DNA of 51,669 nt from positions 1 to 51,669 of the IMG/VR virus record IMGVR_UViG_3300011270_000003; one strand, 5' to 3'. The notes beneath the pieces were generated by a model. It was given only the letters and a program-made list of their open reading frames with translations. It had not been told where the DNA came from and did not search any database. Shown here one piece after another: positions 3,173-49,746 of this stretch. The translations under genes and the position numbers were made by a program. Each line of letters opens with the position of its first letter. The first letter of the stretch is position 1. This stretch comes from a virus (Duplodnaviria; Caudoviricetes).

Positions 3173-3480
3173 ACGAGAAATTCTATGCTGCAATCAACAT
3201 TAAAACACCTAGTATTAAAGACTCAACAGGTATTCCTGGAAACTGTAAAGCAACGTTAGCAGATATTCATGCATACGCAGCTAAACAGTTGTCATCAGAT
3301 CATCTCATTACTAAGGTGATGATTTGTGAAGTAATTGAAGTAGTAGAACGAGCTTCTCCTCCAATTACTATTCGACCTGCAGTCGAAAGAGCTACAGATA
3401 ATACTGGCAGAGAATGGCCAGCAGATCAATCCGAGAAGAGTGAAACCTCCACTACCGATAGGGACTATTCCCACGGATGA
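3169..3480 (+). CDS. Hypothetical protein, possible paralog of 2333-2635
   Basis: ATGA coupling; similar residue pattern to the 2333 protein. Confidence 0.75.
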   Translation: MNEKFYAAINIKTPSIKDSTGIPGNCKATLADIHAYAAKQLSSDHLITKVMICEVIEVVERASPPITIRPAVERATDNTGREWPADQSEKSETSTTDRDYSHG

Positions 3481-3576
3481 GGATAAATGATCTCTTTCGT
3501 GATAAGCGATCCTATGTGAAAGATGTACGGAAGGGTCTGGGTACAGAGGCAAGCATCTGCCAGGTAGTAACGTACT

Positions 3577-4487
3577 AGTCATTCGGACAGCATAGTCGGA
3601 GCGCTAAGCAGGCCCGTGTATCCTTACATGGAGGCTAAAACATAAGGAAGTAGGACTGAACCGATATCAAATCTAGTCCTCCGGTGACAGACGTGATCAG
3701 TCAGCTTAGTCTCTACAACCAGGATATCAGGATCAGAGTCCAATCTGATGAGACGGCAAAGGATTAGTGGAATATCCGTAGTCATCTATCTAATAGATAG
3801 AGAAACAAAAGCAGGACTAATATTAGTATCCTAAGGAGATGTGTAACTCCTTACAGTAACTCAGACTTAATTGGTATAAATAGAAGGTTCAAATCCTTCC
3901 TGAGTGAAAGTACGATCTAGTATTAGGACAAGTAGGATCTAAACCTTGATATGGCCACGGTGGCAGACAAACAACGGTACGCTCATGAGGACACCAGATA
4001 GGTGTCGAACTCGGAATTGGTTTAGAGCGAGTACCATGTGATCGGATGCGCTGGATTGCAACTCCAGAGATGTTGTAAGACCGAACAACCTGTGGTCTGT
4101 ATTCAACAAGGATGTTGATCTGAAAAGACTGAGCAATAGCATCATTAACTAAGTAGACACTCTTCTGAAGAGTTGATCTTAGACTGTTTGACTAGCGCTT
4201 CCATTAGGCGTGAAAATGTCATCTGGAATGATGTCTCAGTATCGAAGACTCTACAGAGATCGCCGATCTGTGATGAACAGATGAATGATCTAAAGAGATG
4301 CAGTGGTTAAGTACACTGGTATAACCGGGGACTGGGAAACGAACCAGCCGGAACGCCCGTTATAAAACTACTCAACGGGAGTAAACCTGGAACAAACACA
4401 TCAGACCTCTCGATGTAGAGAAATAAGAACCAAGGTCTCGACGGTTGTCTACCGTAGGGAGACTTCTAGAGTCTCATGTCCGAGACT
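3577..4487 (+). ncRNA. Candidate giant structured ncRNA (GOLLD/ROOL-like size class)
   Basis: About 1.1 kb with no credible gene, more than 15 hairpins, closing helix AGTC-at-TCGGACA (3577-3589) with TGTCCGA-GACT (4477-4487), tRNA-like subdomain. Strand inferred from flanking genes and T-loop orientation. Confidence 0.75.
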
Positions 4488-4602
4488 TTAACTAATGGAG
4501 GTGCAATCGTGTTACATGATGTGCACTCTGGACAAATCAAACAACCGCCTTAAGTTTGGGGGCACATATGCCCCCGTTAGTCCATTTATAATGGAGGTTA
4601 CA

Positions 4603-4860
4603 ATGTATCATGGATACCCTCCTTTCGGACCTCAATCCAACCCTCTGGCAGATTTAAGAGCTGCCATAGACTACTACAAAGGTTTAGAAAAGGAGTTGAA
4701 GGATCAGAATAAGAAACCAGAACCACCTAAGAAGAAGGATAAGTGGTTGGAAGTAGCACAGACATTTGTAACAATGGCTGCATTCGCTCCAATCGTAGGT
4801 TTTGGACAACTAATATTATACTTACAACTTGCACATCAAGTAAAAGGAATGATACCATAA
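4603..4860 (+). CDS. Small membrane protein
   Basis: GGAGGT RBS before the ATG at 4603; C-terminal hydrophobic helix. Confidence 0.75.
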   Translation: MYHGYPPFGPQSNPLADLRAAIDYYKGLEKELKDQNKKPEPPKKKDKWLEVAQTFVTMAAFAPIVGFGQLILYLQLAHQVKGMIP

Positions 4861-5714
4861 AAACAATCTATACTCTGGTTACCGATATACAGTATTTATT
4901 GACGACCAGAGGCTGGTTCACAGATGAGCTAGCCCTGGATTTATCTAATAACATAACCAAAAGATTACAATCTCAATATAACGATATCGATAAACCATCT
5001 TTAAGAATGTCTAAACTAGGACCTGTCTGTCCTAAAGCTTTATGGCATTCGATACATACACCAGAGTTAGCCGAGCCTCTACCACCATGGGCAGAGTTCA
5101 AATACTCCTTTGGACATATAATAGAGGCTCAGGCTATATCTCTTGCCAAAGCTTCAGGACATACAGTTACGGGAGAGCAGGATGAACTTGTTCTCGATGA
5201 TATCCGCGGTCATAGAGACTGCATTATCGACGGCTACATTGTTGATGTTAAATCTTCCTCTAGCCGTGGGATGGACAAATTCAAAAGGAAATATCAAACA
5301 ACGCTTGACGATTGGGGCTATCTATCTCAACTTGACGCTTATATGGGCGCTAGTGCTAACGACGATCTGGTATTGGTAAAAGACACAGCATATATATTAG
5401 CTATTGACAAACAATTAGGACACATGGTATTATATGAACATTCATTTAGAAAAGAGCATATCCATCAAAGGATTAGATCGTGCAAAGAAACAATTGGACT
5501 TAGCAGAGCTCCGTCTTGTACATGTGGAATATTACCTGAGGGAAAGTCAGGCAATTATAAACTCGATGTTAAAGCTAGCTACAGTCAATACAAACACTGT
5601 TGTTTCCCAAGACTACGAACTTTCCTCTACTCAGATGGACCAAGATACCTTAGTCACGTAGAAAGGAAACCTGATGTCATCGAGATTAACAGAACTGGAC
5701 AAGTCATACACTGA
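4857..5714 (+). CDS. Cas4-like PD-(D/E)xK exonuclease (probable ATA start)
   Basis: LRMSKLG.VCPKALW, FGHIIE, GHRDCIIDGYIVDVKS and GYLSQLDAY motifs. Confidence 0.8.
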   Translation: MKTIYTLVTDIQYLLTTRGWFTDELALDLSNNITKRLQSQYNDIDKPSLRMSKLGPVCPKALWHSIHTPELAEPLPPWAEFKYSFGHIIEAQAISLAKASGHTVTGEQDELVLDDIRGHRDCIIDGYIVDVKSSSSRGMDKFKRKYQTTLDDWGYLSQLDAYMGASANDDLVLVKDTAYILAIDKQLGHMVLYEHSFRKEHIHQRIRSCKETIGLSRAPSCTCGILPEGKSGNYKLDVKASYSQYKHCCFPRLRTFLYSDGPRYLSHVERKPDVIEINRTGQVIH

Positions 5715-7755: not shown

Positions 7756-9879
7756 TTATTTCAATTTACTTAACCTCTCTGCAGCTTCTCTAGCATTCTT
7801 AGTCATAGTTCTCATTTCATTTGGCCGTAACTGACTTTTATAATTTCGAACTGTTCCTACGCCTAATCCAAAATAATCTGCAATCTCTTCTACACTTTTT
7901 CCTGAGTCTAACATTTTAGTAAATTCTCCTTGACGACTACCAATAGAAGCCATAGCAGGAGAAGTATCTATTTTATTACCTTTCTCATCAAAGATAAGTT
8001 GATAAGATCTAGGTATATCTTCTGTCTTTGTAGCAAGAGATACACGTCTTTCTAACTCAGACATACCTGCTCTCTTCTGAGTATTTCTAGCTTCTACTTC
8101 CGATGCTAATTGTCTATATATTCTTTCTTTAGGAGATTCTGTAACTCCTTCCTTACGCATTCTAGCTGCGAATGCTTTTACAAATGATGCAGGAGCATCA
8201 GAAGGAACATTGAAAGCAAACCCTTCTTTGTTCTGAACCCAGTGTTGTAATTCATGAAGAATAGCGTCATGAACTTCTGTAGCATCTATAAGATTTTTAT
8301 TTAATTTAATAGTATTTTGACCACTCATAAATCTAGCTTCTGTAGTATCACTTACAAGATTTCTTTCAACTTTTATATTTTTAGCTTCTGGATATACTTT
8401 ATAAAATTCAGGATGATCTAATACATCGCCTAGTTTGGCTATATTCCAACTACTCTTATTTTTAAAAGCATTTAAATTTACAGAAGAAGGTAAATCACTA
8501 ACTTCTTGTCTAAGCATTCCTTCAGCACCATGTTCTACTCCAGTCAAAACTTTAACTTCTCCAGGAGATAAACCTTGTTTAAGAAGACCCTGAGCATATA
8601 ACTTCTTACCTAGAGAAGGAGCTACAAACATTCCTAAAGTATTAGGAATTGGACGAGCGGGAGTATTAAGCATTGAAGTAAAATCAAATAACTTAGGAGC
8701 TATTGTTTCAATCTCTTCATCTGTCAAAGCACCTTCATGACCTCTATCTGAGATCATTTTAAGAGCTCCCATTAAATTTTGAGCACCACGTAATAACGGT
8801 TCACCGATTGTTCTTACCGGAGATGTTCCAATAGCTTCACCAGCTCTTGTTGCCATTCCTTCCTGTCTACTACCACGATAATTACTTATATCTTTTCCAG
8901 TTCTTTCTGTATAACTCAGATGTCCTGTTACACCTGGTTTAACAGCTTCACGTTGACGTCTAGCTGCTTGTTCAAATGGATCAGACATAATAGTACTATC
9001 AGGTTCCATAGTCATCTTACGTACAGAACCTGGTTGGTCTGTATCTTCAAACAACTTAGATAGATCTAGACTAGGATTATCTTGTCCAGTCTTCTCCCAA
9101 CCTTCTAAAGAACTCTCGACCATATGGTGGGTAACTATACCTAACTTCTTATCTTTGTTAGCTAAGATCGCTTCTCTGATACCTTCGAATGCTCTGTCTT
9201 TAAATTGATTATATGATTCTCCACCAGGCACTACTTCATCTGGTTTCTTTTCTGCATAGTTCTGCAGAATATCATTATTACCTTCACAAGGTTTACCTTC
9301 GAAATTACCTACATTCCAAGTCTTTAATTTATCACTTATCGTGATAGGTATTCCAAGCTCTTTACCGATGATCTGGGATGTCTCTTTAGCTCTAGCTAGG
9401 GGAGATGATACCAGAGCCTCTAAACCTTTACCACGGAGCTCCTCAGCAGCTTCTAGGGCATGTTTACGGCCTTCGGCGCTTAACTTAACATCATCATTAG
9501 TTCCACGAATCTTGTCTTCTTCATTCTCTTCCGTAGTACCATGACGTATAATATGGATATCTTTAGGTTCTTCTAAATGTGTTTTATAACCTAGAACATT
9601 ACCTTTTTGTTTATCTGTAGCTCTTTGTAAAACATCAGACATCCCTTCTGCATAAAAAGGATATTCATTACGTCTATCTTCAACTTCACCCTGAAGATTA
9701 AAATCCAGACTTTCTTTATTTAATTTACCAGGTAAACCTGCATAATAATCATTTGGACTAATTTGGTAGACATCTGTCTTAGGATCATAATTAGGACTTT
9801 GAATTAATTTATGACTGTCTGCGACAGCTTCATATTCATTATCAAACCAACGACCATCACCGTAAGAAATACCCATCAT
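7756..9879 (-). CDS. Polyvalent protein: histidine phosphatase + LPD23-like zincin + C-terminal HTH
   Basis: IIRHG..SSPLARAKET..GGES..VTHH; LGDVLDHPEFYKVYP..ILHELQHWVQNKEGF..EVEARNTQKR; GKSVEEIADYFGLGVGTVRNY. Confidence 0.8.
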   Translation of the reverse strand: MMGISYGDGRWFDNEYEAVADSHKLIQSPNYDPKTDVYQISPNDYYAGLPGKLNKESLDFNLQGEVEDRRNEYPFYAEGMSDVLQRATDKQKGNVLGYKTHLEEPKDIHIIRHGTTEENEEDKIRGTNDDVKLSAEGRKHALEAAEELRGKGLEALVSSPLARAKETSQIIGKELGIPITISDKLKTWNVGNFEGKPCEGNNDILQNYAEKKPDEVVPGGESYNQFKDRAFEGIREAILANKDKKLGIVTHHMVESSLEGWEKTGQDNPSLDLSKLFEDTDQPGSVRKMTMEPDSTIMSDPFEQAARRQREAVKPGVTGHLSYTERTGKDISNYRGSRQEGMATRAGEAIGTSPVRTIGEPLLRGAQNLMGALKMISDRGHEGALTDEEIETIAPKLFDFTSMLNTPARPIPNTLGMFVAPSLGKKLYAQGLLKQGLSPGEVKVLTGVEHGAEGMLRQEVSDLPSSVNLNAFKNKSSWNIAKLGDVLDHPEFYKVYPEAKNIKVERNLVSDTTEARFMSGQNTIKLNKNLIDATEVHDAILHELQHWVQNKEGFAFNVPSDAPASFVKAFAARMRKEGVTESPKERIYRQLASEVEARNTQKRAGMSELERRVSLATKTEDIPRSYQLIFDEKGNKIDTSPAMASIGSRQGEFTKMLDSGKSVEEIADYFGLGVGTVRNYKSQLRPNEMRTMTKNAREAAERLSKLK

Positions 9880-44422: not shown

Positions 44423-44499
44423 GCCCATATAGGCCAATCGGTAGAGTCAGGGGACTTAAAATCCCCACAGTGTCAGTTCGAGTCTGACTATGGGCACCA
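44423..44499 (+). tRNA. tRNA-Leu(UAA) with a short variable loop and encoded CCA
   Basis: Acceptor GCCCATA/TATGGGC, anticodon arm GGGGA-CTTAAAA-TCCCC, T arm GTCAG-TTCGAGT-CTGAC, ACCA end. Confidence 0.92.
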
Positions 44500-49032: not shown

Positions 49033-49746
49033 ATGAATGAAATAGACACTTGGGAAGATTTAGATTTCTGGAGATCAAAGGAGTGGGAAGATGTTCAGAC
49101 CAGATTGGATAGACTTGATATGGAACGTACATTCTATTGCCCAGGACGTTCTAATCTGTTTGCAAGCTTGGATCTTACTCCGTTTGAGCAAGTCAAAGTA
49201 GCAATCATAGGTCAAGATCCTTATCCTAATCCTCAATATTCCACAGGACTAGCCTTTAGTACTCCTAAGGATTGTATAAATAGGAAGGAATATCCGTTCC
49301 CTCCTACATTAGTTAATATTTTCAAAGAGTTACATAACGATCTTCACTATGAATATTTTGATAAAGAAGGAAAGAAATCTATCTTTCCTAAGTCTGGTAA
49401 TCTAGAGCCATGGGTTGAACAGGGAGTCTTACTGTGGAACGCGATACCGACGTGTCTACAATTCTTATCACTCTCACATCTTCACTGGCAGGAATGGCGG
49501 TCTCTTACGATAGAGGTAATCACTCGCCTGAACAGAAAAGGCATCTGCTTCGTACTATGCGGAGGTATAGCAAGAGAATTGACAGAGTTTGTGAACGAGG
49601 ATTACTCAGACTTGATAGAAGTAAGTCATCCTAGTCCTAGAGGTTTCTGTTCTGGAGAACATCCATTCTCTGGAAGTAGAGTCTTTAGTAGAGTTAATGC
49701 ATTTTTAGCTAAAGATAAGTTAGATCCTATAGATTGGAAACTATAG
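49033..49746 (+). CDS. ung: Uracil-DNA glycosylase, family 1
   Basis: VKVAIIGQDPY, GLAFS, PPTLVNIFKEL, QGVLLWN, SHPSP, PFSGS..FS, IDW. Confidence 0.9.
   Translation: MNEIDTWEDLDFWRSKEWEDVQTRLDRLDMERTFYCPGRSNLFASLDLTPFEQVKVAIIGQDPYPNPQYSTGLAFSTPKDCINRKEYPFPPTLVNIFKELHNDLHYEYFDKEGKKSIFPKSGNLEPWVEQGVLLWNAIPTCLQFLSLSHLHWQEWRSLTIEVITRLNRKGICFVLCGGIARELTEFVNEDYSDLIEVSHPSPRGFCSGEHPFSGSRVFSRVNAFLAKDKLDPIDWKL

Follow-up and report, generated by a model that had tools for sequence, protein, structure and literature searches.

The window analysed here is the whole 51,669-nt stretch of a complete virus record (51.7 kb), the end of which repeats its beginning within the DNA polymerase gene. It encodes Pol A, a gp2.5-like SSB, a primase/helicase, a Cas4-domain exonuclease, terminase, portal, capsid and lysozyme, and neither an RNA polymerase nor an integrase appeared in the part of the ORF set that we scanned. 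The gp2.5-like SSB gene (1808-2323, + strand) and the Cas4-domain exonuclease gene (4851-5714, + strand) form the 5' anchor and the 3' flank of a cassette with the order SSB – RNA – mini-ORF – small membrane protein – Cas4-like nuclease. The whole conserved RNA unit, with its ends placed by conservation, spans 3500-4575 (+ strand) and comprises a structured domain, a mini-ORF and a 3' hairpin; no sigma-70 promoter was found directly upstream. An initial annotation had described a stretch at 3481-4602 with no credible gene and, within it, a candidate giant structured RNA at 3577-4487. The first claim holds for 3481-4494, which has no + strand ORF of at least 70 aa, but not for the 3' end, where a conserved 14-codon ORF lies at 4509-4553, and the conserved unit is wider than the RNA proposed. 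The features that define the element, namely anticodon-arm hairpins, T-arms, a Pro-Pro-stop mini-ORF and a conserved membrane-protein gene, had gone unnoticed.

To judge from sequence relationships, the giant RNA belongs to a clade of ~50-kb Zobellviridae-like soil phages. The window capsid is 45-48% identical to those of SIO1-like phages, one close record is classed under Zobellviridae, and 9 of the 10 sequencing runs that hold all or part of the stretch are labelled soil metagenome. No RNA run is listed among these runs, so the list is silent on expression, and contigs from 4 sequencing runs yielded repeats of known variants and nothing more. Two GTDB matches (L120, L121) are clade members, cassette included, that are binned in unrelated GTDB MAGs, one of them as a 50.8-kb contig; both were rejected as a guide to the host, which is left unassigned because they look like misplaced phage contigs.

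An alignment search with the nuclease gave 80 loci, and all 78 with upstream DNA show a gap of at least 350 nt before the nuclease without a + strand ORF of at least 70 aa. Together, the nuclease-derived loci, the window and 8 loci found by motif make up 87 regions, and the 82 of these with a mini-ORF fall into 49 clusters that have <200 alignable nt in common. A further 12 in-family loci were held out; 5 of them lie near training loci, and 2 have one and the same sequence. The RNA gap is absent in five more distant annotated relatives (four cultured, one metagenomic), and BLASTN against cultured phages returned chance matches of 24-38 nt and nothing else. Twelve loci outside the phage family with a 16-mer or gapped pattern were dismissed as chance, with 0 core-model matches. 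The companion membrane protein has matches in 755 protein clusters (50% identity) at E <= 0.001, by which the phage clade carrying the element is large.

Several other features of the genome deserve mention. A 707-aa late-arm protein (7756-9879, - strand) has a histidine phosphatase domain at residues 108-254 fused to regions like large virion proteins, and a replication-arm protein of the uracil-DNA-glycosylase superfamily is encoded at 49033-49746 (+ strand). Compared with L001, the polymerase C-terminus (158-1093) has a short insertion, and the 189-aa ORF after the polymerase (1075-1644) is not present in L001 and L002. One full tRNA gene with anticodon UAA (Leu, which is not represented among the displayed arms) lies at 44423-44496 (+ strand); 2 out of 5 complete relatives carry one tRNA (range 0-1). 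Long hairpins are found between small ORFs 5' of the RNA (2669-2709, -24.5 kcal/mol, local z -4.5), which may mark a site of processing, and within the nuclease CDS (5068-5136, -28.4 kcal/mol, local z -5.7); in L006, a nuclease segment reaches a local folding z of -7.6.

Fold and conserved core of the RNA

On the + strand, 3577-4487 folds better than shuffled sequence (z = -4.93, 0/20 shuffles as good), with z = -2.60 for the - strand and z = -3.53 for 3600-4575. Four close relatives align across the whole gap at 73-90% local identity without a common long ORF; short ORFs vary from one of the 5 close relatives to the next, and the longest stop-free frame in them has 69-121 codons. With these four relatives, 50 of 298 consensus pairs are compensatory, and in a second clade of 7 sequences 110 of 282, both as raw counts that ignore phylogeny. 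Whole hairpins have been gained or lost between the window and its close relatives. Across 25 family members local folding is weak (mean z -1.1 sense, -1.0 antisense and -0.7 in the nuclease CDS), and therefore the case for the family rests on covariation and motifs rather than on stability. GNRA loops are in slight excess over shuffles (57 vs 44.5 of 72).

The complementary pairs and hairpin intervals (14) listed in the initial annotation all occur in the sequence at the coordinates given there. Since complementarity in one sequence does not equal structure, we judged the six long-range helices across relatives, and two of them survive in the four close relatives: GGTAC/GTACC is kept in 5/5 rows with compensation and ACTGAG/CTCAGT likewise in 5/5. 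The others do not, as CAAACA/TGTTTG and CTAGT/ACTAG are kept in 2/5 rows each, and CCAGG/CCTGG and the supposed closing stem between 3577 and 4487 in 1/5 each; five rows for alternative helices were out of register and were discarded. The place of this end pairing is taken by a local hairpin (3563-3576) and a helix (3512-3517/3577-3582) with 2 compensatory pairs each, where covariation outlines a 5' multi-stem domain of the window clade (3505-3605, + strand).

The core includes an H-type pseudoknot (3613-3648, + strand), in which stem 1 (3614-3620/3625-3631) is followed by a conserved A-rich linker, AGGCUAAAA (3632-3640, + strand), and the loop 3621-3625 pairs with 3644-3648. The pseudoknot is marked by the motif GGAGGCUAAAA, and among 35 distinct sequences, one of them mis-sited, the stem-1 loop pairs with the strand 3' of the A-rich linker; loops form more stable duplexes with their own partners than with crossed ones (-6.3 vs -3.1 kcal/mol; 0/10000 permutations). 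A conserved junction at 3680-3762 (+ strand), recognised by motif conservation and a covarying pair, combines motif B (UCCGGUGRCAGAC...CAGYC, with an A-U/G-C covarying pair) and motif C (GACGGCAAA or GUGAGCAAA); B followed by C occurs in 27/87 regions vs 0.03 in shuffles. Pairing in stem 1 and the B hairpin reaches 94% over 18 sequences with 5/10 pairs compensatory, the structure having been drawn from the same 18 sequences. The resulting core model matches 40/100 sources (18 of them training sequences), all of them family loci, and 0/12 chance-motif loci. It covers 26/49 clusters, and in a clade that it misses, four members (three of the second clade, plus L041/L042) still show a B+C junction in diverged form.

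Some loci contain a ~60-nt module, not present in the window, with an invariant AGGAAGAC...AAGCUAYACC and covarying outer stems. Its site varies between close relatives (136 nt before the mini-ORF in L005 and the same in L007, 675 nt in L008); the module, which is without Rfam match, is a candidate for an aptamer or small ribozyme that moves.

For the giant phage RNAs known so far there are structures, but no function. GOLLD (RF02032) and ROOL (RF03087) resemble the RNA described here in being large, phage-encoded and pseudoknotted, with a conserved part and variable insertions, and the initial annotation had offered a divergent member of these classes as one reading. This part of the claim falls. 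No Rfam family matches the RNA in the window (at 3300-4800, sub-threshold chance matches at E <= 10), none reaches gathering in 18 related loci, and a scan of 12 loci at E <= 1 gives just a tRNA. The GOLLD model finds 0/5 related records at E <= 10, and the ROOL model equally 0/5, a result that is weak alone as its controls did not ring. Likewise, OLE, raiA, RNase P, group I and II introns and the other Rfam 15 families gave no model match. GOLLD and ROOL are often near tRNAs, and GOLLD linkers sometimes include whole tRNAs, as PMC12286853 describes; the word anticodon is absent from the main text of that paper. Unlike them, the present RNA has isolated anticodon arms instead of tRNA genes and ends in a Pro-Pro-stop ORF, and the tRNA-island setting of GOLLD is not found, the single tRNA of the window being distant at 44423 and 5 complete relatives having 0-1 tRNA.

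A self-splicing intron, which would split a gene into two flanking halves, was rejected: the upstream ORF is not conserved across the family, and in CRP-13, CRP-9 and T5S1 no more than 80 nt separate the nuclease from the gene before it. Likenesses to motifs of 16S, 23S, c-di-GMP-I and group II domain V are without Rfam support. Our literature search, with most subscription papers outside its scope, found no description of the element; the 29-151 nt IMG/VR candidates in PMC10690425 or COMPASS clusters may include fragments such as the pseudoknot. With covariation in two separate clades, a covarying pseudoknot and a fixed position, the proposal of a new giant structured RNA stands: the element is real and represents a class of giant phage RNA not described before, whose function is a prediction.

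Anticodon arms and T-arms

By loop and stem sequence, peripheral hairpins resemble tRNA anticodon arms with real anticodons, in an order shuffled between lineages. They carry a triplet at positions 3-5 of a 7-nt loop on a stem of 4-6 bp, the criterion used for an arm. All on the + strand, the window has hairpins of Trp type (3733-3748, CCA; loop GUCCAAU, in relatives GUCCAAA), Ile type (3990-4006, GAU; loop CAGAUAG, triplet kept in 3/5 relatives), Cys type (4051-4068, GCA; loop UUGCAAC, GAA for Phe in L004), Gln type (4159-4173, CUG; loop UUCUGAA, synonymous UUG in L004), Met type (4195-4211, CAU; loop UCCAUUA) and Asp type (4441-4455; loop UUGUCUA). In the last of these, GUC is kept in 5/5 relatives while the flanking loop bases and the stem vary. 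A hairpin of the His-type loop family (4266-4282, + strand) has drifted to UGAUGAA, elsewhere UGGUGAA, with 4 compensatory pairs in its stem. In the window, Cys, Met and Asp pass the strict filter; Ile, Gln and Trp are read from the alignment. A tRNA-elbow-like module at 3857-3907 (+ strand), found in 3/5 close relatives, includes a T-arm (3883-3899, + strand; loop UUCAAAU).

Across the 49 sequence-independent clusters, YU-NNN-RA loops (40 vs 3.8 in shuffles), YU-NNN-UA loops (26 vs 1.8) and T-loops (73 vs 0.5) are all in excess, and T-arms are present in 42/49 clusters. Against an expectation of ~2-3 clusters, we counted GAU in 21, GUC in 19, CAU in 18, CUG in 16, CCA in 14, GUG in 13, GUU in 12, GUA in 11, CUC, GAC and GAA in 8 each, UGC and UAC in 7 each and GCA in 6; CGA (18 clusters) was set aside as mostly T-loop variants. 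The enriched triplets, which we take to be normal bacterial anticodons, read Ile, Asp, Met, Gln, Trp, His, Asn, Tyr, Glu, Val, Phe, Ala and Cys, and loops such as CUCCAAA, CUCUGAA, CUGAUAA and CUCAUAA are presumably typical of tRNAs. Arg, Leu, non-CGA Ser and the U34 forms are near background, Thr, Gly, Pro, Arg and Lys triplets show no enrichment in the 49 clusters, and Lys-UUU, the target of PrrC, occurs in 0/49.

The 13 top enriched non-T-loop triplets include no ANN and no stop triplet, a pattern with a chance figure of 0.005 for a set that had GCA and UAC in place of UGC; an a-priori split into used and unused triplets gave P = 0.015. Because the triplet set was picked from the same data, it was checked in two ways: a split-half comparison gave 43% where 16% is expected, and the 12 new in-family loci, scored with the unchanged set, have 39 loops vs 7.4. 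The 19 outgroup loci, which are redundant, have 21 loops vs 8.8 in shuffles, so the background is not zero. Arm density per kb is 2.79 sense, 0.97 antisense, 0.36 downstream and 0.35 upstream, and the triplet enrichment is register-specific (240 vs 93 and 109). An RNA shows on average 3.5 different enriched triplets vs 0.6 in shuffles (CGA included), and repeats the same anticodon more rarely than expected by chance (12 vs 21, P = 0.0045).

In homologous hairpins the stem can covary around a fixed triplet, as for Met in 7/7 sequences of the second clade and Asp in 5/5 of the window clade, or the anticodon can switch (Asp/Asn, Cys/Phe, Gln CUG/UUG). Module order varies from lineage to lineage (125/185 consistent). 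This, together with the finding that 1/173 anticodon arms has a T-loop at tRNA spacing (20-38 nt downstream), points to re-arranged display modules and not to tRNA genes. U33 is present in 83/173 loops and U37 in 66/173. ARAGORN called one gene in 79 regions (L082) and, at a relaxed score, one pseudogene-level call in 87 regions; 256 implausible calls from the relaxed setting with introns were discarded. The RNA region of L112 includes a near-complete tRNA (36 bits) at 946-1012, and near it a T-arm comes immediately after an anticodon arm, which may be a relic of module acquisition.

The Pro-Pro-stop mini-ORF and the membrane-protein gene

At the 3' end of the window RNA, a three-strand switch (4459-4487, + strand) allows 4470-4475 to pair with 4459-4464 or 4482-4487, both pairings being kept in five relatives. 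The SD GGAGGU (4497-4502, + strand) then leads a mini-ORF of 14 aa (4509-4553, + strand) that ends in Lys-Gln-Pro-Pro-UAA and is followed by a GC-rich hairpin without U-tract (4558-4575, + strand). In the window clade the Met loop can pair with 4492-4499, over the mini-ORF SD (8/8 bp in 4 rows, 7/8 in 1); among the family loci no consistent general partner for the Met loop was found inside the RNA.

The motif CCNCCUUAA represents the Pro-Pro-stop that closes an SD-led ORF of 11-33 aa. An X-Pro-Pro-stop mini-ORF is found in 82/87 regions, 12/12 hold-out loci and 0/19 outgroups, with 2/87 on the reverse strand and a mean of 1.5 in shuffles. The misses are four short or cut contigs and L082, which has the motif without an SD start. 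The body is hypervariable, and X-Pro-Pro-stop is the conserved part, with X being Gln in 30 and Arg in 28 of 72 unique copies. In these copies the first Pro codon is used as in the background, which indicates selection on the peptide, while the second is CCU in 62/72 (38% background) and the stop UAA in 70/72 (49% background). Asn, Met, Gln, Phe and Trp are over- and Asp, Tyr, Cys and Glu under-represented in the mini-ORFs, a composition without clear match to the displayed anticodons. The family thus has an SD-led ORF with a conserved C-terminal Pro-Pro under protein-level selection, our criterion for termination arrest, and the mini-ORF is predicted to encode a termination-stalling peptide. 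In E. coli, stalling and SsrA tagging are strongest with DP-stop and PP-stop according to work cited in PMC7246954, which also reports that a C-terminal Pro in Mycoplasma brings no expression change. The mini-ORF shares with TnaC and PP-stop stalling (Hayes et al. 2002) a Pro before the stop and a position upstream of another gene; unlike TnaC, it conserves just X-Pro-Pro-stop and is joined to a giant tRNA-mimic phage RNA.

Within one ribosome-engaging RNA, tmRNA also combines a tRNA-like domain, an H-type pseudoknot and a short ORF, and the present RNA is alike in these parts. We rejected tmRNA, as there is no Rfam match and the ORF, with an SD and a start codon of its own, closes with Pro-Pro instead of a degradation tag. 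Frameshifting or readthrough into the membrane protein was rejected too, because frames 0, +1 and +2 are mixed (22, 29, 20) and open in 23/71.

A stable hairpin 3' of the mini-ORF is present in 49/49 clusters, with a U-tract in 2/49. The downstream SD is paired with the Pro-Pro-stop codons at a probability > 0.5 in 41/71 cases, and a modelled ribosome footprint raises its opening from 0.25 to 0.54. Pro codons and the downstream SD do not covary (4163/5000 permutations as good), and native codons pair with the SD no better than synonymous ones (P = 0.68).

The gene that follows encodes in the window an 85-aa protein of no known family (4603-4860, + strand) with a Pro-rich N-terminus, a Lys/Glu-rich helix and a hydrophobic C-terminal helix. 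Its homologues are mostly 83-118 aa long, 62/74 members have a hydrophobic segment, and none of the Pfam or PHROG families matches. AlphaFold gives two helices (pLDDT 78, pTM 0.31), and the best ESM Atlas score, 0.75, is uninformative. Pro-Pro occurs in the first 25 residues of 40/74 members, a hint that membrane protein and mini-ORF may share EF-P dependence. OLE RNA is adjacent in its gene order to OapA, and the present RNA is similarly a large structured RNA tied to a membrane protein; unlike OLE/OapA, it has no Rfam OLE match, and its protein is ~100 aa with one hydrophobic segment and no family.

Possible functions of the element

Taken together, we incline slightly towards regarding the element as a novel type of viral RNA machine of 1-1.6 kb that would display an evolving panel of anticodon arms and T-arms, load itself on ribosomes by way of the Pro-Pro-stop mini-ORF and have a membrane-protein partner, and that would intercept or reprogram readers of tRNA identity, be they anticodon nucleases or synthetases. 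As its more specific form we tentatively put forward, with somewhat less than even confidence, a polyvalent anticodon decoy parked on the ribosome and directed against tRNA-targeting host effectors. The pseudoknotted core would scaffold the peripheral hairpins with their several anticodon loops and T-arms, as comparison of the loci shows. A ribosome would start at the strong SD of the mini-ORF and, going by the E. coli work, pause at Pro-Pro-UAA, and this pause would keep the RNA at the site of tRNA use, protect its 3' end and make the SD of the following gene accessible. The arms would bind host proteins that read anticodon arms, most likely anticodon nucleases or other tRNA-attacking defence toxins, which would spare the real tRNAs during infection. 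Changes at loop positions 33 and 37 would bar the arms from decoding and may make them poor cleavage substrates. Judging by gene order, the downstream membrane protein is probably a partner, or its gene is co-regulated.

Anticodon nucleases are among the weapons of hosts against phage, and tRNA destruction is a recognised antiphage strategy, to which replacement tRNAs and repair ligases are described as counters (PMC10264068); a multi-anticodon decoy RNA was not found in the literature searched. The same source describes phage tRNAs whose anticodon loops deviate from those of the host and are linked to anticodon nucleases, but these are full tRNAs replacing cleaved ones, whereas the arms here have neither acceptor ends nor tRNA spacing and cannot undergo charging. 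Anticodon switches and shuffled order are what an arms race would lead one to expect. Loop mutations are reported there to render phage tRNAs insensitive to anticodon nucleases (PMC10264068), an effect that could also stop a decoy from binding, and its nuclease-target tables bear on the decoy model. Against a decoy count the absence of Lys-UUU, Arg near background, U33 in no more than 83/173 loops with U37 in 66, the weak local folding across 25 family members, the outgroup loops above shuffles, the hold-out loci that are close to training loci or identical, and a core model that reaches 26/49 clusters.

Instead of nucleases, the arms may be ligands for many aminoacyl-tRNA synthetases in the manner of thrS, a less probable reading that we still take seriously, in which the RNA is bait that gathers synthetases near the parked ribosome and the membrane protein, or a sensor that takes free synthetase as a measure of the host's capacity for translation and gates the downstream genes. 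The thrS operator of E. coli, too, places anticodon-arm mimics without acceptor arm upstream of a translation start, and the present RNA has the thrS-type loop/stem geometry; thrS has one specificity and a short leader, in contrast to several anticodons on a 1-kb phage scaffold. According to PMC9976931, the operator binds via its anticodon arms, and like the yeast aaRS mRNA mimics it binds an anticodon-reading protein. LeuRS and SerRS ignore the anticodon (PMC9976931), which would better explain why Leu and non-CGA Ser stay at background. In addition, the enriched triplets are mostly those of split-box amino acids, there is one of each anticodon per RNA, and the C34 forms CUG and CUC are preferred over U34, whose recognition needs modification (PMC9976931); if the RNA is unmodified, decoy and synthetase readings would both explain the lack of U34. 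However, Thr, Gly, Pro, Arg and Lys are not enriched. The synthetases for the first four read the anticodon. That for Lys does so as well, and bacterial IleRS needs t6A37 (both PMC9976931), yet the commonest Ile loop has U37. Close relatives also show different anticodon sets, as one would expect of variable defence proteins more than of conserved synthetases, and this quick turnover of the panel favours the decoy over synthetase bait or sensor.

The remaining readings account for parts of the element. It is improbable that the whole is a giant cis-acting leader or attenuator, in which the Pro-Pro-stop pause unmasks the membrane-protein SD, the fold gates entry to the mini-ORF, the Met loop with 4492-4499 and the switch at 4459-4487 are control elements, and the tRNA-like arms are of local importance only. 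The fixed position upstream of the same gene, the missing terminator between RNA and gene (U-tract 2/49), the pairing and footprint opening of the SD and the bias to CCU and UAA all fit such a leader, but codons and SD do not covary, synonymous codons pair equally well, Met-loop pairing near the SD occurs chiefly in the window clade, plus a few other loci, and a 1-kb variable anticodon array goes far beyond the needs of attenuation. An RNA-only multimeric cage like GOLLD and ROOL, with loops making intermolecular kissing or A-minor contacts and an incidental anticodon likeness, would agree with a size close to theirs, the phage origin, the pseudoknots and a core that is conserved while insertions vary; we consider it unlikely, as the loop triplets are specifically anticodons, non-redundant and switching between anticodons, the Met loop has no consistent internal partner, and the GOLLD and ROOL models do not match. 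Stalling of this kind, or sequestering, is how lambda bar minigenes inhibit. Here, repeated stalling on the mini-ORF could flood tmRNA tagging or sequester release factors or tRNA-Pro, with the RNA as a stable carrier. Near-universal X-Pro-Pro-UAA, a strong SD, a hypervariable body, the SsrA tagging induced by PP-stop (PMC7246954) and the minigene inhibition cited in the reference list of PMC8012679 speak for this effector, though it leaves anticodon arms and conserved core unexplained and we rate it as very unlikely. Finally, tRNA-like parts, the near-complete tRNA in L112 and the ARAGORN call in L082 could be taken as traces of a decayed tRNA gene array without present function, but this is scarcely credible and is largely refuted by stems that covary while the anticodons stay. 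Moreover, just 1/173 arms has a T-loop at tRNA spacing, 49 divergent clusters have kept the element, and U34 anticodons, common in phage tRNA arrays, are at background.

If the proposed RNA machine is real, it would be a programmable all-RNA device for counter-defence or translation control across a large clade of uncultured soil phages. Since the RNA carries readable clues in its anticodons, its ribosome stop and the next gene, a direct test is possible of whether phages use RNA mimicry of tRNA for counter-defence or for steering host translation. The modular arms also hint at a natural scaffold for RNA ligand display.
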